Of a stretch of 64,000 bases of DNA, positions 1,384 to 49,663 are shown piece after piece. The notes beneath the pieces are model-generated. The model was not told where the DNA came from. It was given only the letters and a program-made list of their open reading frames with translations, and did not search any database. Positions within the stretch are counted from its first letter, which is position 1. Every line of letters starts with the position of its first letter. A program made the translations under genes and the position numbers. Source of the stretch: an uncultured Aminicenantes bacterium. GTDB lineage: Bacteria; Acidobacteriota; Aminicenantia; UBA2199. The stretch is from positions 1-64,000 of the forward strand of contig CBDAFS010000034.1 in NCBI GenBank assembly GCA_965195285.1. Direction: 5' to 3'.

Positions 1384-1407
1384 AATGTTGTTTTGATGGA
1401 GGATAAA

Positions 1408-7635: not shown

Positions 7636-7643
7636 GAGGACAA

Positions 7644-8531: not shown

Positions 8532-8550
8532 TGAGGATTCCGAATATTAT

Positions 8551-20110: not shown

Positions 20111-20641
20111 TTAAAAAGAGGTAGATGTTCCCCAGGGATAATAGTTTCGATTCAGGCAAAAAATTCCGGAGACACCGGAAGTGAGTTGGATGATAAATTC
20201 AAGGATTTCATCCCCGACCTGTACATATGGTTCAAGAATGCAAATGGTATATCCACCGGGTTCCAAATTTTCAATCTTGAAATCCAGATCAAAAAGGCAA
20301 AGGCAAAAACAGCCGGCTTCCTGTTCATTTTCAGTAATGGTAATCAGATTCCCAACAATATCAATATCTGCCAGTATTTCACCGGGACAACAATTAAAAC
20401 CGGCATTCACATGTTTTAATATCAATGTCTGGCCATCATAAGCATATTCAATACAATCTTGATTTTTGGCAGCATCGGTTCCGGTTTCAATTCCGGTGGT
20501 CCATTCTTTACAACCCTGATACTCGACCAATATACCGGAGGGAAGAAGCTCATCTACCTGGGAATCCCTGCAACTCACTACCAGCAAGGCCGCACTGACA
20601 AACACACATAAACCCAACCCAATAATAATTCGGCTATTCAT
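20111..20641 (-). CDS. Cys-rich hypothetical lipoprotein
   Basis: lipobox VVSC; NCCP and CFCLC motifs. Confidence 0.65.
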   Translation of the reverse strand: MNSRIIIGLGLCVFVSAALLVVSCRDSQVDELLPSGILVEYQGCKEWTTGIETGTDAAKNQDCIEYAYDGQTLILKHVNAGFNCCPGEILADIDIVGNLITITENEQEAGCFCLCLFDLDFKIENLEPGGYTICILEPYVQVGDEILEFIIQLTSGVSGIFCLNRNYYPWGTSTSF

Positions 20642-20793: not shown

Positions 20794-22767
20794 CTATTTT
20801 TTACCAAACAATCCCATTTCCACGATCTCGGCAATATCCCAGACCTTTAGCCGGTCATCCAATTCATTGTCTTTCACCGCATCGGTAAACATGAGCACAC
20901 AAAAAGGGCAGGCTGTGGCCACACCGTCAGGGCTCTTGGCCAGCACGTCTTTCAGCCGGAAGTGGTTGATGCGCTCACCCGTCTTCTCATCCATCCACAT
21001 CCAGCTTCCCCCGGCACCGCAACACAGGGAATCCCGACGGGAACGGTCCATTTCCACCAGCTCCAGCGACCTGGCGGAGCGAAGTACCTGGCGGGGGGAC
21101 TCATAAATATTGCTGTAACGGCCCAGATAACAGGGATCATGGTAAGTAATCTTTTTATCAACCGGATGGGTAAGTGAAATCCGCTGGTTCCGGATCTGCT
21201 GAGCCAGATAATCGGCATGGTGAATCACTTCGGCCTGAAAGCCCAGCTGAGAATACTCGACTTTCAGGGTATTGAGGCAGTGGGGGCAGGTGGTCAGGAT
21301 TTTTTTGATATTGTATTTATTGAAGGTTTCGATATTGGTCTGGGCGAGCATCTGGTAGAGGTATTCATTGCCGGCTCTCCGGGCCGGATCGCCGCAACAT
21401 CCCTCTTCCATACCCAGGATGGCAAATTTTTCCCCCAGATGTTTCAGAATCCTGACCATGGCCAGAGCCACATTCTTATTGCGGTCATCATAGGAACGCA
21501 TGCAGCCGACAAAAAGCAGGAAATCAATATTTTTATCTTCCAGCTCCGAAAGCACGGGGACGTCCAGTTCACTGACCCATTCCGCCCGGGTGCTCTGGCT
21601 CAGTCCCCAGGGATTGGAATTGGTTTCCAGCCCTTTAAATGCCACCTTCAATTCCTCGGGAAATTGGCCTTCCATCAACACCTTGTACCGTCTCATATCA
21701 ATGACTTTATCCACATGCTCGATGTGAACCGGACAGTGTTCCATGCAAGACCGACAGGTTGTGCAGGCCCATACTTCTTCCTCCTGAACGGCTCCCCCGA
21801 TCAGCTGGGGAACCTCCCCGGGTTCGGTGCCCCCGGACCTGGCCTTTACAATTAGGGGGGCCTGCCTTAGAAAATGATCGCCCAGATCATTGATCAGCTT
21901 TTTCGGAGAAAGCGACTTCTGGGTTAAAAAGGCCGGACAATGATCCTGACAGCGTCCGCAGCGGGTACAGGCATCCAGATCCATCAGTTGTTTCCAGGTA
22001 AACTCATGGATTTTCGAAATACCAAAAGTCTCGGCTTTTTCATCCTCCAGGTCAATCAGCTTCAACTCCCCCCGTGGCTTGCGGGAACTGAAAATCATAT
22101 TCAGGGGAGAGCTGATTAGATGGAAGAGTTTGGAATAGGGAATATAGGCAATGGTACCAAGGACCAGAAAAAAATGAATGCGAAAGGTAAAAAGTGAAAG
22201 CCACCTCTTGGCGGACAGTTCCATACCGGTCAGATTGATCAGGGCAGCCAAGACCTGGCCTACCGGCGCCCAGGCCTGGGAATCCTTTCCAATGATTGAC
22301 AGCCGGAAGGCCTCCATGAGTAATCCGGTGACAAAAATAAATAAAATCAAAAAAAGAGCGGTAAAATCATCAAACCGATTATCCAACCGATCGGGTCGGG
22401 AAATGAGCCGGCGATAAAACACCAGCAACACCCCTGATATGGCTCCCACGGCAATGATATCCAGCAGCAGCGAAATGAACCGGGTCAGAAAAACCGGCAG
22501 GGTAAAACTGAACTGGGTGAGGATAATTACTGCCAACGGTATTAAAAAACCAACAAATATCAACAAATGCAGGATGCCCGGATACAGATCCTGCAGAATC
22601 CGCCGATGAATTATCCCTTCCAGAAAAAAAACTTTTAAGCGGGACAGCAAGGAACCGGACCGTCTCTCTGCCGTGCCTATTTTCCAGAATCGTATTCGCC
22701 GCTGCAATCCAAGGGCAAATATAAAGAGGGCCAGGAGAATCAAAAAGACATCATTGGTTTTAATCAT
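20794..22767 (-). CDS. membrane Fe-S oxidoreductase, NarI/DsrM-like membrane domain fused to HdrD/GlpC-like 2x4Fe-4S and CCG domains (HdrF/FadF type)
   Basis: N-terminal TM helices with His residues, CTRCGRCQDHCP, CTTCRSCMEHCP, GCCGDP, YHDPCYLGR, CCGAGG, TACPFC. Confidence 0.88.
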   Translation of the reverse strand: MIKTNDVFLILLALFIFALGLQRRIRFWKIGTAERRSGSLLSRLKVFFLEGIIHRRILQDLYPGILHLLIFVGFLIPLAVIILTQFSFTLPVFLTRFISLLLDIIAVGAISGVLLVFYRRLISRPDRLDNRFDDFTALFLILFIFVTGLLMEAFRLSIIGKDSQAWAPVGQVLAALINLTGMELSAKRWLSLFTFRIHFFLVLGTIAYIPYSKLFHLISSPLNMIFSSRKPRGELKLIDLEDEKAETFGISKIHEFTWKQLMDLDACTRCGRCQDHCPAFLTQKSLSPKKLINDLGDHFLRQAPLIVKARSGGTEPGEVPQLIGGAVQEEEVWACTTCRSCMEHCPVHIEHVDKVIDMRRYKVLMEGQFPEELKVAFKGLETNSNPWGLSQSTRAEWVSELDVPVLSELEDKNIDFLLFVGCMRSYDDRNKNVALAMVRILKHLGEKFAILGMEEGCCGDPARRAGNEYLYQMLAQTNIETFNKYNIKKILTTCPHCLNTLKVEYSQLGFQAEVIHHADYLAQQIRNQRISLTHPVDKKITYHDPCYLGRYSNIYESPRQVLRSARSLELVEMDRSRRDSLCCGAGGSWMWMDEKTGERINHFRLKDVLAKSPDGVATACPFCVLMFTDAVKDNELDDRLKVWDIAEIVEMGLFGKK

Positions 22768-23389
22768 TTTTATCCTGTAGGTTTTCAAACTGGTTTTCTT
22801 CAAACACAACCCGACCCGGGGCCAGCATCACCTGGTGACAGTTGAGACATTTCAGGTTCTTGGGAGGCCCCTCGAATTCTTTGCGGTGACAGTCCAGACA
22901 CTCCCGTATACCGGGACGATTGGTGGTATTTTTCATATAGTCATGCCCGGCGCTACGATGGCAATCCAGACAATCCAGACCCTCATCATGATGGATGCGG
23001 TGATTGAACTGAATCACCTGCTTCTTGACCCGGTAGCCCAGGGTTAACACCTCCGGGTGGCAAAACAAACACAATCCGGAAGTCAAGGGATCATCGGCCA
23101 GATACTCGGGCGGAACCACCCAGTCTCTGATATTTTCCAGAAATTTTCCATCCTGGAACAAGGTCTTTGGTTTGCGGTAATGGCATTCATGGCAGCTGGT
23201 TTGATCCGAGGGGTGGCCATTTGATCGGACCCATAAATCATTATGCTCGGGATGACAGCTTTGGCAGACCGAAGAACTGGTGGCCGAATAGCGAACCATG
23301 AACCCGATCCCCCACCCGGCCATAACAATCAGACCCACCAGTATAAACAACAAAACAAAAAACTTCTTGCTTGCTTTTACCCCAGCCAT
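22760..23389 (-). CDS. membrane-anchored hexaheme cytochrome c
   Basis: N-terminal TM; six CxxCH (CQSCH, CHECH, CLFCH, CLDCH, CLDCH, CLNCH). Confidence 0.88.
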   Translation of the reverse strand: MAGVKASKKFFVLLFILVGLIVMAGWGIGFMVRYSATSSSVCQSCHPEHNDLWVRSNGHPSDQTSCHECHYRKPKTLFQDGKFLENIRDWVVPPEYLADDPLTSGLCLFCHPEVLTLGYRVKKQVIQFNHRIHHDEGLDCLDCHRSAGHDYMKNTTNRPGIRECLDCHRKEFEGPPKNLKCLNCHQVMLAPGRVVFEENQFENLQDKND

Positions 23390-23390
23390 A

Positions 23391-24686
23391 TTATTGCTTC
23401 GCTTTCACCACATCAATGGATAACACATAAATTTCCGGTGACTGTCGGCCAGTGGGCGGGCCTGACAACAACACTTTATCACCATTATAACTGATTCCCC
23501 GGGGAGTACAGAAAGCAGGAACCTGGGGGAAATCCATAGGAATTACCCCACTGGCATATCCGGGGACCCGGGGGTCCAGAATCAAATATTCCTTTCCGCT
23601 TGACAGGACCATCATCATCCCTTGGTACACATTTTTATAAAACAGGCAGAAACTTTTCCCGGCAAATCCGTACAGTTCAATCCGGGGAGTGGACGGCGAA
23701 CTGATTTTCTGCAATCCGGATCCATCCACTTTCACCCGATAGGTACCGATTCCCTGCTCTTTATTTCCGCTATAGAAAAACACCACCTGTTTACCGTCAA
23801 AACCAATATCAGCCATACTGAACCAGCGATCGCTGAAACGGGTAATTCGGGTTGCAGGGCCGTCCGGCCAGGTCATAACATACAGGTCATAGTCTGCTTT
23901 ATCTTCACTGGATTGGGCACCAAATAACAGTTTATCCCCGTTACCGCTCAGCGCAAACGCCCAGCCACCGCCCAGCAGGGGGTTTCGGGGGTAAGTCGGC
24001 CAGTTCCAGGTTTCATCAGCAAAAACCGGGCCCAAGGCCATAGACCGGGTCTTGTTTTTCAGATCCAACAAAATAATCCCGCTGCAACTTCCGAATCGGC
24101 GGGGTCCCAGATGCCCCTTTACCGCACAGGCAATCCGGGCTCCGTCATCATTGATGGCAAAATGTGAAATTCGCTCCCAGTTTGAACTCTGAAATCCCAT
24201 GGACCCGGCATCCAATCCTTTCAGACTCTCATGGGGAAAACTGAACAGTTGAATCCGCTTATCAGCGGTATTGGCTACGGCCAGAAAATGATCTATAATA
24301 TTTTCGGGCTCACCCAGAGACAGTAAAAAGACAGCGGTTCGGCCGTCTCCGCTCAGCAAGGGGGGTTTAGAACCCATCATAAGTCTACCCTGGCCAAATG
24401 GTTTCTGGAGCGAATGATCGGCTTCCGAAAAAATTTCGGCCTCTTGGCCGGTATCCAGCTGGAGGAAACGGACCGATTTATGGGTATTGCCATCCGATTT
24501 CATTTCCAGTATATAAATGATGGCCTGACCGTTTCCGCTGATACTGGAGGAAAGCACTTTGTGGTTTCCGGAAAAGGTTACCCGCTCGATTTTAGTGGGC
24601 AGGGTCGTCACCCGGGGAAAAACCAGGGACACCGAGACCAGAAATATAAAAATCCCCATCCATATATATTGACATGTCTTATTCAC
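23391..24686 (-). CDS. secreted TolB-like beta-propeller protein
   Basis: signal peptide; repeated SxxG blades (ISGNG, LSGDG, INDDG, LSGNG, GFDG, SYNG). Confidence 0.65.
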   Translation of the reverse strand: MNKTCQYIWMGIFIFLVSVSLVFPRVTTLPTKIERVTFSGNHKVLSSSISGNGQAIIYILEMKSDGNTHKSVRFLQLDTGQEAEIFSEADHSLQKPFGQGRLMMGSKPPLLSGDGRTAVFLLSLGEPENIIDHFLAVANTADKRIQLFSFPHESLKGLDAGSMGFQSSNWERISHFAINDDGARIACAVKGHLGPRRFGSCSGIILLDLKNKTRSMALGPVFADETWNWPTYPRNPLLGGGWAFALSGNGDKLLFGAQSSEDKADYDLYVMTWPDGPATRITRFSDRWFSMADIGFDGKQVVFFYSGNKEQGIGTYRVKVDGSGLQKISSPSTPRIELYGFAGKSFCLFYKNVYQGMMMVLSSGKEYLILDPRVPGYASGVIPMDFPQVPAFCTPRGISYNGDKVLLSGPPTGRQSPEIYVLSIDVVKAKQ

Positions 24687-24731
24687 CCTTCTTTACCTCC
24701 GTTTAGACCCAAACATTATTCCCATAACCAT

Positions 24732-27026
24732 TTAAATTTTTTCAACCGTTATGAGGGTGTCCTTCAATCCCTGGCCGGGCCAGCTGGCCGCACATTGGCT
24801 TTCAATGATCTGATGAGGGTTCACCCCGTTCCCTTTTTCCCCCCACCAGATCAATCCGGTATCCCGGTCCTGGCTTTTGAAGGCTTTGCCCCGGGCCACA
24901 TTACCGACACCCGAATGCCCCACTCCGGTAGCCAGGGCTGCCGAATCCGGATGAATTCTTTCCGTGGCCAGGACCCGTATGATCAGACTGCCAACCGAAG
25001 AGGTTACCCGTACCCTGCTGCCATTTTTTATTCCCAGTTTACGGGCTGAACCGGTGTTCATCCAGAGCTGATTCTGGTGGAAAAATTCTCGGACCCACTT
25101 GCTGTTTGCCGTTCCATAGGCTGACAAATTGGGTTTGAAGGTGGTCAGGACAAATACATTATTGCCTTTGGCCCCCTGGTTCGGAAGAGACTGATATTCC
25201 GGCAGGTCAAATGGTGTACTGGCTTTCAGAACCGGTGAATATTGCTGAAAAAGAACTTCGGTTTCAGCCAGAGAGAGCGAGTGCTCCCCCTCCCAGTACC
25301 CGTGTTTCATTAAATATTGAATCCCGCCCTGCCGGGAAATATCTTCGTGCCCGCCAATTTTCTTCCTCACAAAATCCAGGGTATCTTCATAGGGAAGGAA
25401 CTCGGCCATTTTTCCACCCAGCCTTCTGGACAGTTCCAGGCATAGGTTGCCTATTTCCCGGGATTCTCCCCGGGGACGAAACTGCCGGTCCAGTAATTTG
25501 CCGATATTGAATGCCGGGGACCTCAAGACCTGGGCATCACTCAGCAGGGTAGCTGCCGGCTGGTTGAAATTAATCAGAGGTTTCCGCTCCATCGAAAGCC
25601 GGGTTTCCACACCCCATGATTCCAGATAGGTAGCTGCCGGCAGCACCAGATCGGCCAGCAGGGCCGTTTCGGTCATATGGGTATCCATGACCACCAGAAA
25701 GGGAATCTTATCCTCATCTTTCAGTATTTTTTCAAGGGCCAGACAATCGGCATCAGAATAAGCCGGATTGGATTGATAGATCAAACAGGTATCCAGGCCG
25801 CTTTTCGATTCGACCATGGTCTTCAGGTCGGCAAAACCGGTTGGTCTGGTTTCGGCAGACTTTGAAATCCGGAAAATCCGATCTTTTTCCGATCCCCCCC
25901 CCGGATAAAACAGGCCGCCCTTTTTTCCGATATTACCCACCAGCAGATTTAACAGGGCAATACAACGGGCACTTTCAAATCCATTATAATGATCGGTTAC
26001 CCCTCCGCCCACCAGGGCAACAGCCGGTGATCCGGTGGCAAACCGCAGGGCCAGTTTTTCAATCACCCGGGAGGGAACACCGCATTCCGATTCAGCATAA
26101 TCAGGAGTATACCGGGACACATGCTTTTTTAATCGAGTGATGAAGCCTTGATTTTTTTTTCTGAAATAATCCCGGTGATACTGACCGCTATCCAGAATCA
26201 CCTTGACCAGTGCCAATGCCAGAAGTCCGTCGGTTCCTGCTTTCAGGGGTATCCATTCATCGCTTCCGGCTGCTGTCTTGGACATTCTGACATCAAAAGT
26301 GACCAGCCGGGCCCCGTTATCAACCCGGGCCCTTACCAGTCGCCGGGCCATGCCCACAAACCGGTCATGATTTTCATAAGGATTGGCCCCGAAATTAAAA
26401 ATGGTATGACTGTTCTCGATATCCGCTTCCAAAAGGGGCAGGCCAAATACGGATGCCAGAGCAGCCTGGCCACAGTTGTTTTTTTCAACCTGCCTCTGCA
26501 AAACGTTTGAACATCCCAGGCTTGAAAGAAACTCATTCAGTAACGGGTCTTCCGACCCTGAATCCACAACCAGCCGATGGGTTTCTCCCCGGGAAATCAA
26601 GGGCTCCAGACGGGTAAACAGAATGGAATAGGCTTCATCCCAGGTAATGCGGCTCCAGCTGGAGCTGCCCCGGGGCCCTACCCTTTTCAGAGGGTAGAGC
26701 AGCCGCTCCACATCATTGACCAGGTTGATCCCGGCAATCCCCTTGGCACACAAACCGCCGCGGTTATCGGGGTGATCGGGATTCCCCAGCACCTGTACCA
26801 GCCGGTCACCGTCCAGATAGGCGATAATCCCACAGCCGGCCGGACACTGTCTGCAGGTGGTGGGAATGGCCTGGTACTTTTTCAATGAAGTCCGGGAAAC
26901 CGAGGCCGGCAATCCCTGATCCGGCTTGGTTTTTCCCTGTGCGTATTTATGGGCAGTCAGCCCGGCAAATCCGGACAGGCCCAGTTTCATGAACCATCTT
27001 CTTGATATTCCTGTTTTAAAAAACAT
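24732..27026 (-). CDS. Tat-exported molybdopterin oxidoreductase-family subunit (PsrA/ArrA/TtrA-related, divergent)
   Basis: SRRWFMK Tat motif; CRQCPAGC...C Fe-S motif; RLLYPLKR; TETALLADLVLPAATYLE; AAGGA SD favours ATG 27026 (alternative 27035). Confidence 0.88.
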   Translation of the reverse strand: MFFKTGISRRWFMKLGLSGFAGLTAHKYAQGKTKPDQGLPASVSRTSLKKYQAIPTTCRQCPAGCGIIAYLDGDRLVQVLGNPDHPDNRGGLCAKGIAGINLVNDVERLLYPLKRVGPRGSSSWSRITWDEAYSILFTRLEPLISRGETHRLVVDSGSEDPLLNEFLSSLGCSNVLQRQVEKNNCGQAALASVFGLPLLEADIENSHTIFNFGANPYENHDRFVGMARRLVRARVDNGARLVTFDVRMSKTAAGSDEWIPLKAGTDGLLALALVKVILDSGQYHRDYFRKKNQGFITRLKKHVSRYTPDYAESECGVPSRVIEKLALRFATGSPAVALVGGGVTDHYNGFESARCIALLNLLVGNIGKKGGLFYPGGGSEKDRIFRISKSAETRPTGFADLKTMVESKSGLDTCLIYQSNPAYSDADCLALEKILKDEDKIPFLVVMDTHMTETALLADLVLPAATYLESWGVETRLSMERKPLINFNQPAATLLSDAQVLRSPAFNIGKLLDRQFRPRGESREIGNLCLELSRRLGGKMAEFLPYEDTLDFVRKKIGGHEDISRQGGIQYLMKHGYWEGEHSLSLAETEVLFQQYSPVLKASTPFDLPEYQSLPNQGAKGNNVFVLTTFKPNLSAYGTANSKWVREFFHQNQLWMNTGSARKLGIKNGSRVRVTSSVGSLIIRVLATERIHPDSAALATGVGHSGVGNVARGKAFKSQDRDTGLIWWGEKGNGVNPHQIIESQCAASWPGQGLKDTLITVEKI

Positions 27027-27038
27027 GGTTAACATTCC

Positions 27039-27947
27039 TTAAATCAACGGAACCGATTCTCCTCCGACCACCACCACATACCTCATGAAAAAAATCCCGA
27101 TTATAACCAGAATACTGGCCAGGATGATGGTGAAGACATTTCTGAACTTGGGGATGACCAGCAGGAAAAAGGGAAGCACCTTCCCCAACAGGTTCTCGAT
27201 GATCAGAAAGGGAACAAAAAACTTGCCCCGGATAAGCACCTGAAGTACCTCCTGGGCTTCGGAGTGGGAAACCGCCAGCACAATCAGATCGCTGCCCACC
27301 AGGAAGAGATCCAGTACAATGGCCCAGGCCAGGATGGTGGCCAGTTTTCCCACCAATTGGAAATCCGGTTTCCTGTTCTTGGAAAAAACGCCAAAGACCA
27401 CCAGGTACACGATGATTACCAGGGCAATACCGGATACGATTGCCGAAACCAGGAACAGCACCGGCATCAGAGCCGTATTCCACAGGGCCCTGGCCTTGCC
27501 CATAGCCACAATAAAACCGGTATAGCCATGAATCAGAATAGCCAGGGGAATGCCGATAAACGCAAAAATACGGGTCTGTTTGGGCTTATCCCTGAACATA
27601 AAATATCCGTAAATAATGCAATTAATGGGATACAGAATCAGCAGAAAAGTCCCCCAGGTAATGGGAGAAGCCGGATTCAGATAAACAAACAGATGCCAGA
27701 ACCGGATGGGAGAACCCAGATGAAGGAGTAAAAATACCGGTGCCAGCATTAGCAGAAATGTAGCCATGACCACACCGATTTTTCCCAGGGGTTTGAACAT
27801 TTTTATCCCGAACCCATAAGCCAGAGTGGACAGAATGAAGGATCCGGCACTCAAACCGGTCAGGTAAAAATAAATGGCAATGTTCAAACCAAAGGCCTCC
27901 TGGGGAACAATGTTTTGCAGTATCTGAATATCCATCGGGTTATTCAT
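27039..27947 (-). CDS. NrfD/PsrC family quinone-interacting membrane subunit
   Basis: YFYLTGLSAG, HLGSPIRFWH, SPITWG, GYTG, FMRYVVVVGG; about 8 TM. Confidence 0.92.
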   Translation of the reverse strand: MNNPMDIQILQNIVPQEAFGLNIAIYFYLTGLSAGSFILSTLAYGFGIKMFKPLGKIGVVMATFLLMLAPVFLLLHLGSPIRFWHLFVYLNPASPITWGTFLLILYPINCIIYGYFMFRDKPKQTRIFAFIGIPLAILIHGYTGFIVAMGKARALWNTALMPVLFLVSAIVSGIALVIIVYLVVFGVFSKNRKPDFQLVGKLATILAWAIVLDLFLVGSDLIVLAVSHSEAQEVLQVLIRGKFFVPFLIIENLLGKVLPFFLLVIPKFRNVFTIILASILVIIGIFFMRYVVVVGGESVPLI

Positions 27948-28560
27948 CCCCTTCTATTTTTTTGGTTTCCACTACATCCCGGTCAAGCCCGATATAAAAG
28001 GTATAGGGTCTGGTGCCCATATCGGCTTTTATCGACTGCACGGGATTCCGGGCCACGGCTTTGGCAATAGGACTATCCGGATCATTGAGATCCCCGAAAA
28101 GGATGGCACCGGTCGGACAGGCTTCCACACAGGCCGGGTCAAGACCGGCATCCACCCGGTGATGACACCAGTAACACTTTTCGGCAATCTTACGGGTCGG
28201 GTGAATATAGCGGACACCGTAGGGACAGGCAGCCATACAGTAGCGGCATCCGATACAGCGGTGGGGATCAATATACACAATCCCGTCGGGCCTCTTGATC
28301 GAAGCGCCCACCGGACAGACCGTCACACAGATGGGATTGTCACAATTATTACAGACAATGGGTAAAATAAATTCCCTGGCAGCCGGGTAACGCCCCTTTT
28401 CAATCCGTTTGATCCAGCTTCTCCAGACCCCAAGGGGAACATCATTCTCGCTCTTGCAGGCCAGCACACAGGCATGGCAACCAATGCATTTGCGCAGATC
28501 AAAGAGCATGGCATAGCGGATAGGCCGTTTTTCTGATTTTGATCTCGCTGGTTGGCTCAT
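27940..28560 (-). CDS. 4x[4Fe-4S] electron transfer subunit (NrfC/PsrB/DmsB family)
   Basis: CIGCHACVLAC, CNNCDNPICVTVCP, CIGCRYCMAACP, CYWC...PACVEACP; no own Tat signal. Confidence 0.93.
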   Translation of the reverse strand: MSQPARSKSEKRPIRYAMLFDLRKCIGCHACVLACKSENDVPLGVWRSWIKRIEKGRYPAAREFILPIVCNNCDNPICVTVCPVGASIKRPDGIVYIDPHRCIGCRYCMAACPYGVRYIHPTRKIAEKCYWCHHRVDAGLDPACVEACPTGAILFGDLNDPDSPIAKAVARNPVQSIKADMGTRPYTFYIGLDRDVVETKKIEGDE

Positions 28561-29447
28561 TCCTGGTCCTGTTCTCCGGGCTCGCTTTCCGGCGGAGCCG
28601 GTTTGTTTTCTTTTTTCTTGGTTTCCAGAAACTTCCTGATTCCGGCCACTATTTTTCCCGATGACCGGTATCCCTGAAACAGGAACAGGGCCAGGAAAAA
28701 GAGAAATACCAGCCCAACCCCCGCCATATTAAGGCCGGACCACCTCCGGGAATTGATGTGGGTGCCACCCATCATCAGGTTTCCCTTGGAACCGGGATCG
28801 TGACAGCGGACACAGAATACCTTGTAGACCCGCTTGGTTCCATGGGCGGAATCCGCATAATGACAGCTGATACAGACCCGCATGTCAAACTTTTCCCCCG
28901 GGTCCCCCTTGCGGTGTCCGGAAATTTTACCCAGGGAAAATCCCCTGAATATTCCGGTCACCATGACTTCCGCATGACAGCTTCCGCAGGTATCACCGAT
29001 ATTGTCTTCATGCACCGAGGATACGGGATGGTCATGTTTGAGAACCTGATGTTTGGTATGACAGTGATAACACTGGGGCAGTTCTTTTCCCGGGGTAGCG
29101 GTTTCCGGTTTGAAAGTATAATGAATATTTTTCAGATACTCCTCTTCCTCCTCCGGGTGGCAACGTGCACAGTTGACATTAATATTCCCCTCCCTGAAGT
29201 GAATGAAGGGGTTGGCATAAATGTGACAGTCAGTGCAGGACATTCCCTTTTTTTTGTGAACATCCTGTTTCCACTCTTTTTCATCAACAAATAACGACCG
29301 GGTTTTTCCCTCCGGGGTGATCTGGGAAAGCTCCGGTTTGCCGTGGCACTCCAGGCAATCTTCATCGGTATACTTCTCGGACTGAAGGCAAGCAAAGCAT
29401 ATGAAAAACAGGGCAAGAAAAAAAATTGAACGTTGTATTAAAGCCAT
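28557..29447 (-). CDS. heptaheme cytochrome c with C-terminal membrane anchor
   Basis: signal peptide; seven CxxCH (CLECH, CTDCH, CARCH, CYHCH, CGSCH, CISCH, CVRCH); C-terminal TM. Confidence 0.88.
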   Translation of the reverse strand: MALIQRSIFFLALFFICFACLQSEKYTDEDCLECHGKPELSQITPEGKTRSLFVDEKEWKQDVHKKKGMSCTDCHIYANPFIHFREGNINVNCARCHPEEEEEYLKNIHYTFKPETATPGKELPQCYHCHTKHQVLKHDHPVSSVHEDNIGDTCGSCHAEVMVTGIFRGFSLGKISGHRKGDPGEKFDMRVCISCHYADSAHGTKRVYKVFCVRCHDPGSKGNLMMGGTHINSRRWSGLNMAGVGLVFLFFLALFLFQGYRSSGKIVAGIRKFLETKKKENKPAPPESEPGEQDQE

Positions 29448-29520
29448 ATGTCTGGATTCAAAAAAGGCGAATAACCGGGATTATTCAGGTTATCCGGCGA
29501 AAAACACTTTATCATTAATT

Positions 29521-29549
29521 ATTATAGAAAATCAAAAATACGATGTCAA
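29521..29549 (-). promoter_or_regulatory. perfect-consensus sigma70 promoter of the redox operon
   Basis: minus strand TTGACA(29549-29544)-17bp-TATAAT(29526-29521). Confidence 0.8.
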
Positions 29550-29567: not shown

Positions 29568-29606
29568 AAGAGGTCAAATCTCCCCTTGTTTCTATAGTGA
29601 CCCCTT
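29568..29606. repeat. short imperfect inverted repeat at insert boundary
   Basis: AAGAGGTCA (29568-29576) / TGACCCCTT (29598-29606), 21-nt spacer. Confidence 0.5.
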
Positions 29607-29766
29607 ATTATACGATTTCTATAATAAGAATATATTCATTGAAAAAATGTAAAATTTCCTTTAAAATAGCCCTGAGTATAAAAAAGGAGTTTTTACTCAA
29701 TTTAATCCCCGTTGAAAAGAACGTTCTATGAGCTCCTTATTATGTTGAAAAATCCGGAATCAAGTT

Positions 29767-32700
29767 ATGAAAAAAATAGATGAAAGGACAGGTAAACAAC
29801 CTATTCTAAAACTGCAAATTCTTATTATTATTATAAGCCTGGTTCTGGTTACGGTAGTAATCTTACTCGGGAGCAAAGTCTTTCGGGAGACCAGGAAAGT
29901 AGCCACAGACCAGTTCAACCAACAACAGTTGATATTAGCCCGTTCGGCTGCCACCAGCATCAAAGTTATCTTTACGGAATATGCTGCTGAATTATCGTCA
30001 TTGACGCAACTACCAGCAATCCAGCAGATGACTCCTGAATGCTTAAAATACATGCAACATGCATATTCGGGTTTCCCTCTCAGAACCTCAATACGACGGT
30101 TAGACCAGAATGGTATCCTTCGATTCATTTACCCCTTCGAAGGTTGGCGAAAAGAACTGATAGGGAAGGACTATAGTAAAAAATATTTTTTTCAACAAGC
30201 CAAGAATACCGGGCGCATTATTATATCCAGCTTGATCAGTAACAAAAAGGGCAAAACCCGTATAAGAGTTGCGGTTCCAGTCTATCAGACACATAAGATG
30301 GTTACAATCAAGACCGGAAAAATGACCGGCGTAATGGTAATGCCTGACCGGGATAATAAGCCAGAATCGAAAAAATTTACAGGAATTCTGGTGGGATCAT
30401 TTGATATTTACATGATCGCTCAAAATATCATCTCTCCCATCATATCGGGTAAGACCGGTTATGCCTGGTTGTTAAACGAAAAGGGCGTTTTTATAGCCTA
30501 CCACGAGAAAGAATTAGTTGGCCGAAACGCTTTTAAGGTAAGGAGAGAAAAAAATCCTGAAATTATCCATAAAACGATTGATAAAATCCAGAGGCACATG
30601 ATAGCAGGAAAAGAGGGAGTAGGTCGATATATCACGGGCTGGCATAAGGGGGAAAAAAAGAAAATTGAGAATCTTATCGCTTATACTCCCGCCCATCTCA
30701 ATAGCCAAACATGGTCTGTAGCCGTATGCGCTCCGGTTTATGAAGTAGAGGAAATTATTCGCTCAGCCCATCGATCTGAGCTATATATATTGGGCTTTGT
30801 CATATTGGTATTGATAGGAGGCGGAATTTTTTCCTTTCTAATTTCTTATCGCTGGGCACATTCTCTGGAACGAGAAGTCATAAAGCAGACGAAGGAACTT
30901 AAAAAAACCAGTGACTATTTACAAAATCTAATAGAATATGCCAATGCCCCCATTATTGTCTGGAATCCTGAGAAAAAAATAAGTATTTTTAATAAGGCTT
31001 TTGAAAAAATGAGCGGACGAAGTGCAGAAGAAATGGTTGGACAACCACTGGACACCCTGTTTCCTGAAAAATACCGCTCGGTTTCCCTGAAAAAGATTGA
31101 AAGCACTTCGGAAGGGAAATACTGGGAAACAGTGGAAATCCCAATTCTTCGCAAAGACGGTGAAACACGTATAGGGTTGTGGAATTCAGCAAATATTTAT
31201 AACCAGGAGGATCAAACACTCCTGGCAACCATAGCCCAGGGTCAGGACATAACTGAACGCAAACACACAGAGGAAAAATTACTGTATCGAGTTAAACTGG
31301 AGAGACTCATCTCTACATTATCAACAAACTTCATCAACGTTATGCCGGATGAGATCGACCAAAGAATAAACGATGCCTTGCAAAAAATTGGAGAATTTGC
31401 TGATATTGACCGCAGTTATATCTTTTTGTTTTGCGACAACCTCACCAGGATGAACAATACACATGAGTGGTGTGCCGAAGGAATTAAACCTCAAATCCAC
31501 ATCAACCAGGGTTTATTGGTTAGTGACTTCTCCTGGTGTGAAGGTAGAATAAAGAGATTTGAAACCATCCTTGTTCCCCGTGTTGCCGATCTTCCGGCTG
31601 ATGTAACTGAAAAGGAATTTTTCCAATCGCAAGGAATCCAATCGCTTATCCTTGTTCCGATGATATATGGTAAGTCGCTTTATGGATTCCTTGGGTTTGA
31701 TTCGGTAGGGAAGGAAAAGCACTGGTCTGAAGATATAATCGCGCTGCTAAAAATCGTAGGTGAAATGTGCGTGAATGTATTGGAACGAAACCAGACAGAA
31801 AAAGCACTTCGCGAAAGCGAGGAAAATTACAGAACATTAACAGAAAATATAAATCTTGGTATATATAGAAACTCTCCCGACCATAAAGGCACATTTCTCG
31901 AAGCTAACCCTGCAATTATTAAGATATTTGGCTTTAAGAACAGAAAAGAATTTCTGACTATAAATGTTGTTGATTTATATCAGAATCCAGAAGACAGAAA
32001 TAAATTTAATCATAAAATGTTGAGAGAAGGATTTGTAAAAGATGAGGAATTAAAATTAAAGAAAAAGGATGGAACCCTCATAATTGTCTCTGTCTCTACT
32101 GTAGCAGTAAAAGATGAGAAGGGAAAGGTGAAATATTATGATGGTATTATCGAAGATATCACAGAACGTAAACACCTTGAACAGCAGTTTTTCCAGGCTC
32201 AGAAAATGGAAGGTATAGGAAGGTTAGCAGGCGGTATCGCCCATGATTTTAATAACCTGCTCACTTCAATAATTGGCCATGCAGAAATAGCAAAAATGAA
32301 ACTCCCTTCAAATAGTCAAACTTTTAACTACATGAAGCAGATATTAAAAACAGCAGATAAAGCCACAACTCTCATTCAACAACTCTTGGCTTTTAGCCGC
32401 AGGGCTTTGATTCAACCCAAAGTTCTTGATTTAAATAAGGTTATAAGAAACTTCAAGCCCTTGCTTCAGCGTATTTTGGGAGAAGATATCATATTAGAAT
32501 TTATATCTGACAAGACACTCGGAAATATAAAAATCGATCCCAATCAAGTTGAACAGATAATCATGAACCTGGCTGTGAATTCTCGAGATGCAATGCCCAA
32601 AGGAGGAAAACTAACTATTGAAACCAGGAATGTGGAACTTGATAAGGACTATACCAAGAGATATCTAAATTTGAAACCAGGGAGATATGTTCTTTTTGCT

Positions 32701-33318
32701 GTAAGTGACACAGGATATGGAATGAACTCTAAGACTCTATCTCACATTTTTGAACCATTCTTTACCACTAAGGAAAAGGGCACCGGTTTAGGGCTTTCCA
32801 CTGTATATGGAATAGTAAACCAAAGTGGAGGTCACATTAATGTGTATTCTGAAGTAGAAAAAGGAACAATTTTTAAGATTTATTTGCCAAAGGTGGATGA
32901 AGAATTGGAAAAAGAAGTTACCTTGTCCGAGTCATCCAGACTCTTTAAAGGAAAAGAAACAGTTCTATTGGTTGAAGATGAAGAAAATATCCTTGAACTT
33001 ACGGTAAAGGTTCTAACTGAATGTGGATATAGGGTCTTAACAGCTAAAAACGGAAAAACGGCTCTCCCCATTTGGGAGAAACATAAAAAGGAGATTGATT
33101 TACTTCTAACTGATGTCGTAATGCCTGGTATAAGTGGTAAAGAATTGGTAGAAAAACTCTCACCCTCAAAACCTGAACTTAAGGTGTTATATATGTCAGG
33201 TTATTCGAGAGATATAATATCCTACCACGGATTAGTAGAGAGCGATATTCACCTTATTCAAAAACCGTTTACTCCTGAGGAGTTGACAAGAAAGATCAGA
33301 GAAGTTTTGACTTCATAA
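29767..33318 (+). CDS. hybrid sensor histidine kinase (Cache-PAS-GAF-PAS-HisKA-HATPase-REC)
   Basis: two TM around a Cache-like domain, DITERK PAS ends, [36 protein letters not shown]. Confidence 0.93.
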
Positions 33319-33401
33319 AAGGCAAAATGTTATCTTAACATTAACAAGGCCAGGTCAAACATAGTTAATACAAAAAAGACAATTTTATCAGGGAGAATTG
33401 A

Positions 33402-36038
33402 ATGAAATTCCATCGCTTGACATCTCAGGAGGTTCTAAAACACTTTTCGTCAGGAATAAACGGCCTTGGTGAGGTTGAAGCACAAAAGAGACTTGCTCAA
33501 TACGGCCCCAACGAAATAGCGCGCAAGCGTGAAATCTCTCCTGCCAGGATCTTTCTTTCTCAGTTCAACAGCTTCATCGTTTACATACTCATCGCTGCGG
33601 TTATCATATCATTAATACTCCACGAATACATTGACAGTGCTGTGATCATCGCCATCCTTATCGTAAACGCGGTTCTCGGGTTCTTTCAGGAATATAGGGC
33701 GGAGAAGGCCATCGAGTCGCTCAAGAAAATGGCAGCTCTTCAGGCAACAGTGTTAAGGGATGGCCACAAGGTAAGGATCAATAGCAATAGACTTGTGCCC
33801 GGCGACATGATCGCTTTCGAGTCAGGGGATCGGATACCTGCCGATGCCCGTATCATCGAAGGATACCAGCTTGAAGTCATGGAGTCATCGCTGACAGGTG
33901 AAAGTCTGTCGGTAAGAAAGGAGTCAACACCTATAAATGATACCGGCACGCTTGGTGATATGAAGAACATGCTTTTCGCCGGTACCCACGTCACCAGTGG
34001 TTCCGGCAGGGCGGTCGTGGTGAGAACGGGCATGGACACCGAGATGGGAAAGATTGCTGAATCGATTGACTCTGTCGAGGATGATGAAACACCGCTTCAA
34101 AAGAGACTGGATCTGCTGGGGCGAAAACTCGGGATACTGACACTCATCATCTGCGGAATCATCATCGTCTTCGACATCTTCAAGGGTGGGAATATCCTTG
34201 AGATGATAATGGTTGGGGTGAGCCTTGCCGTAGCTGCCGTACCCGAGGGTCTTCCAATTGTAGTGACCATTGCGCTGGCTCTCGGAGTCAAGAGGATGGT
34301 TCGACATAATGCCCTGGTAAAACGCCTGCACAGCGTTGAAACACTGGGATGCACCACGGTCATCTGCACGGATAAAACCGGGACCCTTACGCGCAACGAG
34401 ATGACGGTAACGAAATTGTACGTCAACGATACCATCATCGATATTACAGGCACCGGATACGGGACTTCCGGAGAGTTCTTTTCTTCAGGAAAGAAAATAG
34501 ATCCTTTATCTGCTGAACTTCTCCTGAGGATAGGCGCTCTTAACAATGATGCCGCATTATCAGAAAAGGAGAGTGTTATCGGCGATCCCACCGAAGGATG
34601 CCTTATTGTCAGCGCCGCAAAGGCGGGACTTAGAAAGTCGATTTTAAATGATAATTTTCCACGGATTAATGAGATACCCTTTGATTCGGAGCGCAAGAGG
34701 AAATCTACGGTTCATCGCACTAAAGAAGGCCTTTTGATGTACACCAAGGGAGCTCCGGACATGGTGATAAAGCTCTGTTCCAGGATAGATGCCGGCGGGA
34801 AGATATCGCCCCTTACCGATGAAGCGAAAAGCATGATCATTGAAACAAACCGAAGGTTCGCATCGCAGGCTTTACGGGTGCTTGCCTTCGCTTATAAACC
34901 GCTGGCTTCCGGTAGGGCCGTTGATGAATACGATGAGAATGACCTTATCTTTGTGGGTCTGCAAGGCATGATCGATCCTCCCCGTGACGAGGTTCCGAGT
35001 GCCATCGAAAAGTGCAGGAATGCAGGGATTCGATCCGTTATGATAACCGGCGACTATGCACTCACCGCACAAGCCATAGCCCACCGACTGGGCATGAAAG
35101 GTGATGCGGTAACCGGAGAAGAGCTTGAAAAGATGAATGATGAAGTGTTGGAAAAAACAGTCAAGGAAATCTCAATTTTTTCAAGGGTAAACCCGGAGCA
35201 CAAGATACGGATCGTGCGGGCCTTAAGAGAAACAGGAGAGGTGGTTGCCATGACCGGAGACGGTATTAACGATGCTCCGGCGCTCAAGGAGGCTGATATC
35301 GGCATCGCCATGGGTATTACCGGCACGGACGTGACCAAAGAAACGGCTGATATGGTGCTCCTTGATGATAAGTATACCTCAATTGTAAATGCTGTGGAAC
35401 AGGGAAGGGGCATCTACGAAAACATTAAGAAATTCGTGAATTACCTGCTTTCGAGCAATCTGGGTGAAGTCTTAATACTTTTCATAGCCATGATCATTGG
35501 CTTTAAAGACGCTTCCGGAGTCATAGTAATGCCGCTTCTGGCCACGCAGATCCTCTGGCTGAACCTCATTACAGATGGCCTTCCCGCAGTAGCTTTAGGT
35601 GTTGATCCCATACGAAAAGGAATCATGGATGTACCGCCACGCAATCCCGGTGAACCGATTATAACAAAAAACATGGCGACAAACATTATCATCATATCAG
35701 TACTCATGGCAGCCGGAGTCCTCTTTCTCTTTAATCGGTTTCTTCCCGAAGGGGACACAATCGCGCGAACGATTGCCTTCACCTCCATCGTAATGCTCGA
35801 GATGGTGAGGGTCACTATGGTCCGTTCCCAGTACAAACTTCCATTCTTCTCAAACTTTTATCTTATCGGGGCAATAATTTTTTCTGTGTTGCTCCAAGTG
35901 GCGGTCGTCTATGTGCCGGTAATGAACATAGTCTTTAAAACCACGGCGCTCACCCTTTACCACTGGGGCTATATGGGTGTGGTGATGGCAATAACATTCG
36001 TTATAGGGACAGTTATGACCAGGCTGACAAATCGATAG
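33402..36038 (+). CDS. P-type ATPase, type IIA (Ca2+-translocating-like)
   Basis: TGES, VPEGL, DKTGTLT, KGAP, DPPR, TGDGINDAPAL, NLITDGLPA. Confidence 0.95.
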   Translation: MKFHRLTSQEVLKHFSSGINGLGEVEAQKRLAQYGPNEIARKREISPARIFLSQFNSFIVYILIAAVIISLILHEYIDSAVIIAILIVNAVLGFFQEYRAEKAIESLKKMAALQATVLRDGHKVRINSNRLVPGDMIAFESGDRIPADARIIEGYQLEVMESSLTGESLSVRKESTPINDTGTLGDMKNMLFAGTHVTSGSGRAVVVRTGMDTEMGKIAESIDSVEDDETPLQKRLDLLGRKLGILTLIICGIIIVFDIFKGGNILEMIMVGVSLAVAAVPEGLPIVVTIALALGVKRMVRHNALVKRLHSVETLGCTTVICTDKTGTLTRNEMTVTKLYVNDTIIDITGTGYGTSGEFFSSGKKIDPLSAELLLRIGALNNDAALSEKESVIGDPTEGCLIVSAAKAGLRKSILNDNFPRINEIPFDSERKRKSTVHRTKEGLLMYTKGAPDMVIKLCSRIDAGGKISPLTDEAKSMIIETNRRFASQALRVLAFAYKPLASGRAVDEYDENDLIFVGLQGMIDPPRDEVPSAIEKCRNAGIRSVMITGDYALTAQAIAHRLGMKGDAVTGEELEKMNDEVLEKTVKEISIFSRVNPEHKIRIVRALRETGEVVAMTGDGINDAPALKEADIGIAMGITGTDVTKETADMVLLDDKYTSIVNAVEQGRGIYENIKKFVNYLLSSNLGEVLILFIAMIIGFKDASGVIVMPLLATQILWLNLITDGLPAVALGVDPIRKGIMDVPPRNPGEPIITKNMATNIIIISVLMAAGVLFLFNRFLPEGDTIARTIAFTSIVMLEMVRVTMVRSQYKLPFFSNFYLIGAIIFSVLLQVAVVYVPVMNIVFKTTALTLYHWGYMGVVMAITFVIGTVMTRLTNR

Positions 36039-36079
36039 GGTGGAGAGCTATAAAAGAGAAGGGTCAAGTCTTGTTTTAT

Positions 36080-36616
36080 TTACTTACCGATTTTGGTGCC
36101 ACAATGGGGACAGATTTTCCAGCCGTTTCGGATCTCGGTTTTACACTTCGGACACTGGGGCTTTAACACATGACCGCAACCGGGACAGAAGGCAAAATCG
36201 TCCTGAATGGGCTTCTGACATCCGGGGCAGGTAGGGAGGTTCTCCTCCGGAACCCGGGTCCTGGATTCGGTACGAATGATCAGGTAAATGATCAACCCGA
36301 TCAGGTTGCCGATCAATACCAGCAATGCCCACAACAGACCATTCATTTTCCTCCGTTCCGCATCCCGGTACACCCAGGCAATCACCAGAATCCAGATCAC
36401 CAGCAGGATCAGGGAAAAAATGTGTATAATGGGAAAAGGGAAAATGAAGTTGTTTCCCATGGATAATCTGTTACCGATAGTGTGTTTTATGGTCTGGGAT
36501 ATATTGGAAAAAATGCCAAAGGGGGCAAAATAAAAAGGAGTAAACCTCAAGGCGATCCAGGCCAGGACCATAATCAGTAGAATAAGTCCGAATACTTTTC
36601 CTTTATTGTTTGTCAT
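36080..36616 (-). CDS. membrane protein with PLDc_N-like hairpin and double zinc ribbon
   Basis: WVYRDAERR...LIIYLIIR; four CPxC motifs; GGAGGT SD before ATG 36616. Confidence 0.8.
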   Translation of the reverse strand: MTNNKGKVFGLILLIMVLAWIALRFTPFYFAPFGIFSNISQTIKHTIGNRLSMGNNFIFPFPIIHIFSLILLVIWILVIAWVYRDAERRKMNGLLWALLVLIGNLIGLIIYLIIRTESRTRVPEENLPTCPGCQKPIQDDFAFCPGCGHVLKPQCPKCKTEIRNGWKICPHCGTKIGK

Positions 36617-36684
36617 TTCATACCTCCGTTTCAATTATAAAATCCGGGATATTCCCGGAAAATCCTTCTGTTTTCCTCAGATAT

Positions 36685-37188
36685 TTATCCATTTCTGGCC
36701 TCCTGCCTGGATAGGCCCGCATAGCGTCCATAACGCCGGATCAACAGGGGGGACAACAGCAACATCACTGCATTCTGGAGCACCAGTATGAAGGCCAGGG
36801 TCTCCTGAGATGAGAATGAAGTCTCAAACGACAATTCCCCCACAACCGGAAAGATCAGGACCAGGGTAATGGCCATCAAGGCCATCAGGGCCAAATAAAC
36901 CGACCGGGGGATCCGGCCCGGGTCAATAGCCTGGCGTTTCAACCGCTTTCCGGCCAAGACCTTCTGGATTTTCCGGTGACACACTTCCCGGCTCACCCGT
37001 TCACAATCATCCGGCAAAACCGGTTCGGGGATTGCCTTTAGTCCCCACTGCAGCTGTTTGAGTTCCTGTTGAAATTCACGACAATCCCGGCAGTTTTCAA
37101 TATGATCAGCCAGTAGCCTGGATTGGGGTTTGGACAACAACTCCGGCCGTTGATCAATCATCAATGCTCTATAGCCTTTACATTTCAT
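36685..37188 (-). CDS. zinc-binding (zf-HC2) membrane anti-sigma factor
   Basis: HIENCRDC motif, two C-terminal TM, ATGA overlap with ECF sigma gene. Confidence 0.82.
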   Translation of the reverse strand: MKCKGYRALMIDQRPELLSKPQSRLLADHIENCRDCREFQQELKQLQWGLKAIPEPVLPDDCERVSREVCHRKIQKVLAGKRLKRQAIDPGRIPRSVYLALMALMAITLVLIFPVVGELSFETSFSSQETLAFILVLQNAVMLLLSPLLIRRYGRYAGLSRQEARNG

Positions 37189-42846: not shown

Positions 42847-42895
42847 TTTAAAATTTTCTCAGCAATCTGGGGAAAAAATGCCTCAGGTCATCAAA
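42847..42895 (+). repeat. 49-bp direct repeat copy 2 (current 3' end of RND gene)
   Basis: 46/49 identical to 41277..41325; minus strand reads FDDLRHFFPRLLRKF*. Confidence 0.92.
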
Positions 42896-45964: not shown

Positions 45965-45972
45965 TTTACTGT

Positions 45973-49650: not shown

Positions 49651-49663
49651 GTCCAGTTCTCCC

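Follow-up and report, generated by a model that had tools for sequence, protein, structure and literature searches.

Aminicenantes are widespread, uncultured anaerobes that are usually described as fermenters, and the locus considered here raises the question of what a set of seven adjacent genes for haem, iron–sulfur (FeS) and molybdopterin-family proteins could be doing in such an organism. The genes, designated g1 to g7 in their order of reading, lie in a stretch of 64,000 nucleotides (positions 1 to 64,000 of contig CBDAFS010000034.1, assembly GCA_965195285.1), which is termed the window throughout. An initial annotation, made from the letters of the window, had read them as a Psr/Qrc-type module of four genes followed by a DsrMK/HdrF-type module of three, and had suggested a link between periplasmic multihaem carriers, the quinone pool and a cytoplasmic thiol/disulfide or related reaction. 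The answer reached here is that the seven genes constitute one conserved operon, which probably specifies an undescribed membrane electron-transfer machine linking intracellular electrons to the quinone pool and to cytochromes on the outside. The parts and the logic of this machine are known, and its novelty resides in the combination, in a clade of molybdenum (Mo)-family MopB subunits that lack the metal ligand and retain the other motifs, and in an HdrB-complete relative of the EMO proteins.

The seven open reading frames (ORFs) run head to tail on the minus strand from 29447 down to 20794 (Table 1), and both their overlapping or nearly abutting arrangement and the domains first assigned to them were recovered in every item. 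The intervals from g1/g2 to g5/g6 are -4, -8, +3, +45 and +1 nucleotides, and the g6/g7 junction, by arithmetic from the coordinates, measures -50 nucleotides with a TTG start of g7 at 22809 and +4 nucleotides with an ATG at 22767; the ATG appears preferable, since it gives a protein of 657 residues, the length of many listed homologues. The perfect promoter claimed for the operon, TTGACA-17-TATAAT, agrees with the sigma-70 consensus at 12 of 12 positions, stands 73 nucleotides 5' of the g1 ATG and is the sole exact occurrence in the 64 kb window, where 0.01 would be expected (mean of 100 shuffles). In the closest two relatives, L001 and L002, g1 is likewise preceded by an exact TTGACA-N16-18-TATAAT, at the same offset in L001; the L002 proteins are 55-78% identical to those of the window, and the nucleotide homology between L001 and the window extends to 29576. 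Within the operon, neither promoter-like sites (14, with 11.2±3.6 by chance in shuffled sequence) nor terminator-like sites (16, with 14.5±4.5) are in excess, and a scan of the whole window at the Rfam gathering thresholds returned 0 matches, that is, no known riboswitch or leader.

The conservation of this arrangement was evaluated by a scan of species-representative genomes with a profile of g4 and 28 homologues, which yielded 580 pattern matches, 467 of them encoding a relative; the best 80 loci were kept, form the basis of all locus counts given here, and had all their ORFs compared by blastp with the seven window proteins. Forty-nine loci are of the Aminicenantes type (g4 42-95% identical to that of the window), an assignment resting on records titled Aminicenantes together with protein similarity, because other record names ('uncultured Eubacteriales', 'Clostridia', 'Proteobacteria') look like placeholders. 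All seven genes are colinear on one strand in 33 of these 49 loci, and in the remaining 16 a contig border falls exactly where the missing genes would be, so that loss of a gene inside covered DNA was seen in 0 of 49. Two complete Aminicenantes chromosomes, CP070825.1 (L018) and CP070750.1 (L020), contain the cluster. The co-occurrence of all seven families, and the synteny of the last three genes with the first four, on which the original interpretation had been made to depend, are thereby borne out. The sole perfect promoter, the abutting or overlapping genes, the colinearity and the absence of internal loss establish the seven genes as a conserved syntenic unit and support their reading as one operon.

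Table 1. Coordinates of the promoter and of the seven genes in the window
Feature	Positions	Strand	Characteristics
sigma-70 promoter	29521..29549	-	TTGACA-17-TATAAT, sole exact match in window
g1, heptahaem cytochrome c	28557..29447	-	7 CXXCH, N-terminal signal, C-terminal membrane helix
g2, ferredoxin-type subunit with four [4Fe-4S] motifs	27940..28560	-	16 Cys; Fer4_11
g3, NrfD/PsrC-type integral membrane subunit, 302 residues	27039..27947	-	Pfam NrfD
g4, Mo/W-bisPGD-family (MopB) subunit	24732..27035	-	three molybdopterin-family Pfam domains, Tat motif
g5, PD40/TolB-like beta-propeller	23391..24686	-	AF2 model and Foldseek
g6, hexahaem cytochrome c	22760..23389	-	6 CXXCH, N-terminal membrane helix
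g7, EMO/EtfD-family fusion	20794..22767 (ATG) or 20794..22809 (TTG)	-	Nitrate_red_gam, Fer4, two CCG domains

The seven genes keep together while their flanks vary, which further implies that the block is a real unit. The flanks in the group formed by the window, L001 and L002 are unlike those of the other loci. Approximately 21 other Aminicenantes loci carry upstream, on the same strand, a gene for a protein of about 900 residues with a CarboxypepD_reg domain and an outer-membrane beta-barrel domain, and about 12 loci have directly 5' of g1 a gene for a His/Asp-rich protein of about 275 residues, the last residue of which is aromatic, as in outer-membrane barrels; examples of such upstream regions are L003:1671-4463, L018:3764-7286 and L007:6374-7198. 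These two proteins could provide an outer-membrane outlet for the cytochromes or could reflect mere synteny. No homologue of the conserved flanking proteins of other loci, the barrel and the 275-residue proteins included, was detected in the window, and the barrel genes were on that account rejected as part of the unit. A pyridine-nucleotide oxidoreductase gene flanks the block in 22 loci and a beta-eliminating lyase gene in 24. Complex I genes are situated a few kb away in a minority of loci (nuoA-like in 10 of 49, others in 3 to 8), which argues that a quinone pool is in use.

The cytoplasmic side of the question concerns g7. Its product comprises a NarI-like cytochrome b domain (Pfam Nitrate_red_gam), two cubane [4Fe-4S] sites and two CCG domains, and the eight cubane and ten CCG cysteines are conserved in an alignment of 33 rows. 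Counted from the conserved cysteines, both CCG motifs are complete (CX34CCX35CXXC and CX35CCX36CXXC), with spacings which we take to match the HdrB/HdrD pattern. In the Protein Data Bank (PDB), g7 matches M. smegmatis EtfD (9ojn_A) across the membrane and soluble parts with E = 2.9e-120 and 405.8 bits, 9OJN being cited as the M. smegmatis enzyme in the EMO preprint (10.64898/2026.08.18.745454). The NCBIfam families of sulfate-reducer proteins score far lower, at 55 bits for DsrK (cut-off 400), 22.5 for DsrM (300), 65 for TmcB (735) and 40 for HmcF (750), so that the DsrK-type identity originally proposed for the last gene gives way to membership of the EMO/EtfD family. The homologue search returned, among the 120 matches listed, only Aminicenantes-type co-orthologues of at least 62% identity.

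Two members of that family, which consists of electron-transferring flavoprotein (ETF):(methyl)menaquinone oxidoreductases, have been characterised. MsEtfD is described as an electron wire from ETF to menaquinone, with four FeS clusters and one haem b held by His78 and His241 (PMC13083937), and the S. aciditrophicus protein (SaEMO) is reported to serve a reverse redox loop with three haems b, in which His233 holds the distal twin haem and the three haem histidines are kept across EMO-like domains (10.64898/2026.08.18.745454). His67, His198 and His216 of g7 are invariant in the 33 rows; His67 and His216 align to His78 and His241 of MsEtfD, and His198 precedes His216 by 18 residues, the same spacing as H233/H251 of SaEMO, with the result that the EMO haem-ligand set (SaEMO H87, H251 and H233) is present in full. 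The three-domain architecture in a single chain, with a five-helix NarI-like domain, the haem bP ligands, the distal histidine, the two cubane clusters and the two CCG domains are hence shared. The distal site, in contrast, is given as a linear [3Fe-4S] cluster in MsEtfD (PMC13083937) and as a [4Fe:5S] cluster with one Cys missing in SaEMO (10.64898/2026.08.18.745454), whereas g7 has all ten CCG cysteines and in this respect seems nearer to heterodisulfide reductase than both. Moreover, g7 lacks the disordered C-terminal region of about 30 kDa found in MsEtfD, and unlike these proteins it sits in an operon of cytochrome c, NrfD and Mo-like genes. The proposal of a cytoplasmic thiol/disulfide partner therefore survives in part: the ten cysteines keep it alive, and membership of the EMO/EtfD family makes ETF at least as likely a partner.

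On the periplasmic side, the most unusual subunit is g4, which displays the Tat motif SRRWFMK, finds its best NCBIfam family in PhsA (269.6 bits, cut-off 694) and its best PDB match in T. thermophilus PsrA (2vpw_A). In five of the five profile-to-structure alignments printed (PsrA 2vpw, F420-dependent formate dehydrogenase 9t1s, ArrA 6cz7, HDCR FdhF 7qv7 and FdhH 1aa6), the Cys/Sec column falls on Lys185 within the family motif LKNLNR; in PsrA, ArrA and FdhH this column presumably supplies the metal ligand. Among 43 Aminicenantes-type rows the column holds Lys in 34, Asn in 4, Arg in 4 and Glu in 1, a result that does not support a 'Psr-type' reading of g4. The 20 Actinomycetota rows have Tyr (11), Phe (8) or His (1), the only Desulfomonilaceae row (L048) has Glu, and the 8 rows of an outgroup with the gene order A-B-C include Cys in 3 (L070, L077 and L078). 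A replacement Cys, Ser or Asp common to all ligand-less relatives was not found, and C431 and C532 of g4 occur in Aminicenantes only. As a separate observation, 58 of the 64 rows without the ligand have Asn at residue 188, three positions beyond the lost ligand; a Cys stands there in the window, L001 and L002 alone, perhaps as a regained ligand and perhaps by chance.

The loss of the ligand is accompanied by the retention of the rest of the cofactor scaffold. Cys61, Cys64, Cys68 and Cys96 of the FS0 cluster are kept in 64 of 64 ligand-less rows, and the canonical motifs (R250, S252, T254, GTD, H..G, N363, GG, NP, ETA..AD..LP and QP) are kept in the outgroup and in the clades without the ligand alike, in segments which align at high confidence to solved enzymes and which we read as those that bind the pterin. 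The g4 protein is consequently neither a normal Psr/Phs enzyme, having lost the Cys/Sec ligand, nor an equivalent of QrcB or ActB, having kept FS0 and the pterin motifs; QrcB is described as carrying no redox cofactors (PMC13059093) and ActB as lacking the pterin (PMC10100899). Median identity across homologues is 76% for g2, 67% for g3 and 50% for g4, the second lowest value of the seven, which is compatible with a structural role under relaxed constraint as well as with rapid evolution of an enzyme.

For g2, the ferredoxin-type protein (Fer4_11, 1.4e-25; 16 Cys in four ferredoxin motifs), T. thermophilus PsrB (2vpw_B, 3.7e-57) ranks first in the PDB, and NCBIfam gives TtrB 215 (below its own cut-off), DsrO 202.2 (cut-off 200) and NrfC 196; g2 has no signal peptide and, by analogy with Psr, is probably exported together with g4. 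The g3 product belongs to Pfam NrfD (4.3e-45), with DsrP as best NCBIfam family (83.8, cut-off 350), followed by NrfD (67) and QrcD (37.1, cut-off 570), and no match at E <= 0.01 in a PDB sequence search; about eight helices are predicted, from seven hydropathy peaks and one weaker N-terminal segment read by eye. The g6 cytochrome possesses a transmembrane helix at residues 10-28 and six CXXCH motifs, as do 37 of 37 homologues, and its best PDB matches are the ActA chains of alternative complex III (ACIII), namely 8k9e_A (1.7e-8), then 6lod_A, 6btm_A and 6f0k_A; NCBIfam adds QrcA (2.1e-9, 37.2 bits with a cut-off of 180) and the NrfH N-terminus (3.6e-7). This ActA/QrcA-like character, and the g6-like cytochrome that follows the Mo-like gene in Actinomycetota loci without g7, would place g6 in the quinone module, which revises the division into the first four and the last three genes and leaves g7 as the only HdrD-type component. 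A co-fold of g6 and residues 1-262 of g7, its membrane domain, based on 30-row alignments, scored 0.01 (mark 0.32), which speaks neither for nor against their contact.

The remaining two subunits are more restricted. The g1 cytochrome has seven CXXCH motifs, as in 34 of 36 complete homologues, and seven further histidines (64, 83, 109, 133, 178, 202 and 230) kept in at least 97% of rows, which is consistent with bis-His haems; hydropathy places its C-terminal membrane helix at residues 239-257, and the PDB and NCBIfam searches gave no informative match, the one PDB match being at chance level. The g5 protein matches no Pfam or NCBIfam family. Its AF2 model (pLDDT 87.8, pTM 0.86) consists of an N-terminal helix and an all-beta domain, for which Foldseek retrieves the propellers of TolB, oligogalacturonate lyase and S9 peptidases at E ~1e-11 and TM <=0.55, and the nearest Atlas clusters, which resemble it by their features, consist of PD40 proteins. 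Among 1.84 billion representatives, a profile search retrieved 14 proteins at E <= 1e-30, of which several are fragments, followed by nothing but generic PD40 repeats. These results portray g5 as a membrane-anchored or secreted beta-propeller of a narrow, lineage-specific family.

Relatives outside the Aminicenantes reveal which of these parts travel together. In the Desulfomonilaceae locus L048 (8486-15153), an FeS protein, an NrfD protein, a Mo-like protein, a 5-haem cytochrome c, a NarI-like protein and a protein with Fer4 and two CCG domains are encoded in a row, without g1 and without g5, so that a second phylum also links the HdrD-type part to the Mo-like module. In the 21 Actinomycetota loci (L049-L069; 20 with a near-full-length g4), the FeS, NrfD and Mo-like genes precede one for a cytochrome of about 260 residues, which where examined has 7 haems and is NapC/NirT-like; some also have a 12-haem cytochrome gene upstream, and no g7 homologue or HdrD-type gene was found where examined. 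The outgroup loci L070, L071 and L074-L079 exhibit the usual A-B(-C) gene order. A FastTree analysis of 72 near-full-length g4 relatives, unrooted and with long-branch joins flagged by the tool, splits off the Aminicenantes (support 100), the Actinomycetota (99) and the A-B-C outgroup (100) from one another. The recurring core accordingly comprises the FeS, NrfD and Mo-like proteins and an N-terminally anchored multihaem cytochrome, to which an HdrD-type protein is joined in two phyla, g1 and g5 being additions of the Aminicenantes.

On these grounds the reading that we prefer, tentatively and at slightly less than an even chance, is that the operon encodes a two-sided, menaquinone-linked redox loop between a cytoplasmic donor, most likely ETF, and a periplasmic module of haem and Mo-like proteins. 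The outer-face module would unite g2, g3, g4, g6 and g1 on the plan of Qrc, ACIII or Psr, an assignment prompted by the Tat motif of g4, the signal-less g2, PsrA and PsrB as closest solved structures, the ActA/QrcA-like g6 and the recurrence of the core without g7. Within it, the NrfD subunit g3, with its eight or so predicted helices, may exchange electrons with menaquinol/menaquinone, since the NrfD/FeS pair is the quinone-reactive unit described for Qrc and ACIII (PMC6303296). The four FeS clusters of g2, the Tat-exported g4 with its FS0 and pterin motifs and without the usual ligand, and the membrane-anchored cytochromes g6 and g1, with six and seven haems, could carry the electrons further, and the g5 propeller is probably a periplasmic scaffold or docking subunit. 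On the inner face, g7 would let a carrier in the cytoplasm pass electrons to the same quinone pool or take them from it, the likeliest carrier being reduced ETF and the alternative a thiol/disulfide couple. Electrons from cytoplasmic oxidations, such as the breakdown of acyl-CoA or amino acids, might thus pass through menaquinone to a periplasmic sink, or in the reverse direction, so that one operon would provide a quinone reductase inside and a quinol oxidase outside, or the reverse. The known EMO/EtfD examples work in either direction (PMC13083937; 10.64898/2026.08.18.745454), and a quinone cycle has been proposed between the two halves of DsrMKJOP (PMC8076601).

Several observations weigh against this loop. 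Genes for etfAB, acyl-CoA dehydrogenase, DsrC and Moco biosynthesis were found neither in the window nor among the conserved neighbours of the 49 loci, which leaves the cytoplasmic partner without contextual support; Pfam scans of the other ORFs of the window (17, 19 and 20 proteins, two of them scanned twice) likewise detected no DsrAB, DsrC or ETF family, in line with the earlier statement that dsrAB and dsrC are missing from the window. The two complete CCG motifs of g7 lean towards an HdrD-like catalytic site over a pure ETF wire. The ligand-less g4 may be without catalytic activity, in which case no terminal reaction is evident, and this subunit is the second least conserved of the seven. 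Furthermore, the binding of the seven products to one another and their co-expression are predictions made from the genes.

The two-sided plan of the locus, with a cytochrome c, a four-cluster FeS protein, an NrfD-type subunit, a NarI-type cytochrome b and an HdrD-like CCG protein, is also that of DsrMKJOP and HmcABCDEF, and each of these parts has its equivalent in either system: DsrJ, DsrO, DsrP and DsrM+K, or HmcA, B, C, E and F (PMC8076601, Table 1). The products could accordingly form a single transmembrane complex of this type, in which periplasmic donors would reduce the cytochromes and the FeS subunit and the haems b of g7 would take the electrons across the membrane to the HdrD-like non-cubane clusters, where a cytoplasmic disulfide or trisulfide would be reduced. 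Despite the DsrO cut-off reached by g2, the best NCBIfam family of g3 and the completeness of both CCG motifs against the altered distal cluster of both characterised EMOs, this explanation is considered unlikely: the DsrK, DsrM, DsrP, HmcF and TmcB scores are all far below their cut-offs, g7 is much nearer to EtfD, dsrAB and dsrC were not encountered in the window or the conserved neighbours, and neither Dsr nor Hmc offers an equivalent of the Mo-like subunit or of the propeller. In addition, the locus has two multihaem cytochromes and fuses the cytochrome b and HdrD-like parts into a protein of EMO/EtfD type, and the eight or so helices of g3 contrast with DsrP, which is grouped with ten-helix proteins (PMC6303296). 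An ordinary PhsABC/PsrABC thiosulfate or polysulfide reductase with unrelated neighbours would be suggested by the source annotations of the homologues ('thiosulfate reductase/polysulfide reductase chain A'), by PhsA and PsrA as best matches of g4, by the general likeness to a Tat-exported A-type subunit with FS0, a four-cluster B-type subunit and an eight-helix C-type subunit (2vpw chains A and B being the closest solved sequences for g4 and g2), and by a metagenome study which credits Aminicenantes bins with thiosulfate reduction, whether or not through g4 (PMC6646835). It is nevertheless highly improbable, given the absence of the Cys ligand from 43 of 43 Aminicenantes-type rows, the PhsA score below half of its cut-off, the gene order B-C-A where L070, L071 and L074-L079 have A-B-C, the supported branch that parts the ligand-less proteins from that outgroup, and the strict co-conservation of four extra genes, which add cytochromes, a propeller and an EMO-like protein.

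A non-catalytic quinol:cytochrome c (or cytochrome c:quinone) oxidoreductase resembling Qrc or ACIII, with g4 as a structural relic and g7 as an independent feeder of the quinone pool, offers another account, to which we attach a rather low probability; the same low weight is given to the idea that its cytochromes would exchange electrons with partners that are soluble or lie outside the cell, for instance metal oxides, humics or a syntrophic organism. The ligand column, which varies and shows no Cys, Sec, Ser or Asp in any of the Aminicenantes (43) and Actinomycetota rows, speaks for it, and so do the matches of g6 to ActA and QrcA and the outer-membrane-type genes upstream of the block in other loci. 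The composition is moreover that of periplasmic Qrc, with an anchored multihaem cytochrome (hexahaem in Qrc, with g6 as a possible equivalent), a ligand-less Mo-family subunit, a four-cluster FeS protein and an NrfD-type subunit (PMC6303296), and for MBNT15 and Melioribacter similar clusters of FeS, NrfD and multihaem proteins have been put forward as the quinol oxidases that serve iron reduction (PMC9386147). Against this account, g4 has four FS0 cysteines and pterin motifs where QrcB is presented as cofactor-free (PMC13059093), g3 has about 8 helices where QrcD is given 10 (PMC6303296, PMC13059093), and the four Qrc equivalogs score 37, 195, 118 and 37 bits with cut-offs of 180, 440, 400 and 570; the gene order differs from that of Qrc, to which the locus adds a second cytochrome, a propeller and g7, and the window is devoid of outer-membrane barrel genes. 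ACIII (ActABCDEF) shares the ligand-less Mo-family fold, the FeS clusters, the NrfD-type subunit and the anchored multihaem cytochrome, and differs in that ActB fuses the Mo-like and FeS parts, encoded here by the separate genes g4 and g2, and in having two NrfD-like subunits (ActC and ActF) together with ActD and ActE, where the locus has one NrfD. The initial annotation was thus right in recognising no named complex: across the NCBIfam models for Qrc, Dsr, Hmc, Tmc, Psr/Phs and Ttr, the DsrO cut-off reached by g2 is the only one attained.

The most far-reaching interpretation is that g4 and its relatives in the Aminicenantes, Actinomycetota and Desulfomonilaceae represent a new catalytic branch of the Mo/W-bisPGD family that operates without a side-chain ligand, within a single transmembrane supercomplex of all seven products, and that an HdrB-complete EMO-like module couples a cytoplasmic ETF or thiol reaction directly to the periplasmic chemistry of g4; taken as a whole, we judge this quite improbable. 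Arsenite oxidase holds its pterin cofactor without a protein side-chain ligand. If the interpretation were true, a respiratory pathway would be newly assigned to an abundant, uncultured and supposedly fermentative lineage.

Several neighbouring features of the window deserve description. Downstream of the operon, 152 nucleotides 3' of g7, the minus strand encodes at 20111-20641 a Cys-rich protein of 176 residues with a lipoprotein-like signal and no Pfam family, conserved at that place in L001 and L002 alone; since the interval to g7 contains no terminator-like site, it may be a sublineage-specific eighth gene. Upstream, a divergent gene for a hybrid sensor kinase (29767-33318; dCache, PAS, GAF, HisKA, HATPase and REC domains) adjoins the operon and is followed by a P-type cation ATPase gene (33402-36038) and by zinc-ribbon and sigma-factor genes (36080-37748). 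The GC content is 0.39-0.40 at 30001-34000, which covers most of the kinase gene, and 0.47-0.50 around it; in L002 the operon directly adjoins homologues of the zinc-ribbon and sigma-factor genes, and the homology with L001 ends at 29576. The stretch 29577-36050 looks like an insertion. Elsewhere, the window harbours a gene pair for a RelB antitoxin and a YafQ/ParE-type toxin (1375-1934, plus strand), a membrane-fusion protein gene together with two AcrB-type RND transporter genes that lie side by side (1038 and 1225 residues) (42848-50767, minus strand), and a gene for a ferredoxin of 62 residues with 2x[4Fe-4S] directly 5' of a gene for an FeS-cluster carrier ATPase of Mrp/NUBPL type (50926-51923, plus strand). 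A cluster of TetR, outer-membrane factor, HlyD and ABC-2 exporter genes occupies 5717-12425 on the plus strand, and the outer-membrane factor gene indicates a two-membrane organism.

No description of the seven-gene cluster was found in searches of the full-text literature, and the supplementary phylogeny of the EMO preprint may already include the clade. The label 'thiosulfate/polysulfide reductase' given to the large subunit is a likely annotation error for the g4 family, because these proteins are without the Cys ligand. The joining of an EMO/EtfD-type protein, from a family whose structures date only from 2025-2026, to a module resembling Qrc or ACIII amounts to a natural experiment for bioenergetics, and the presence in g7 of both HdrB-type motifs, together with the pairing at this locus, bears on the proposed evolutionary link between heterodisulfide reductase and ETF:quinone oxidoreductase. 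For the Aminicenantes themselves, a strictly conserved operon in the neighbourhood of complex I genes suggests a membrane electron-transfer chain that has so far gone unrecognised.

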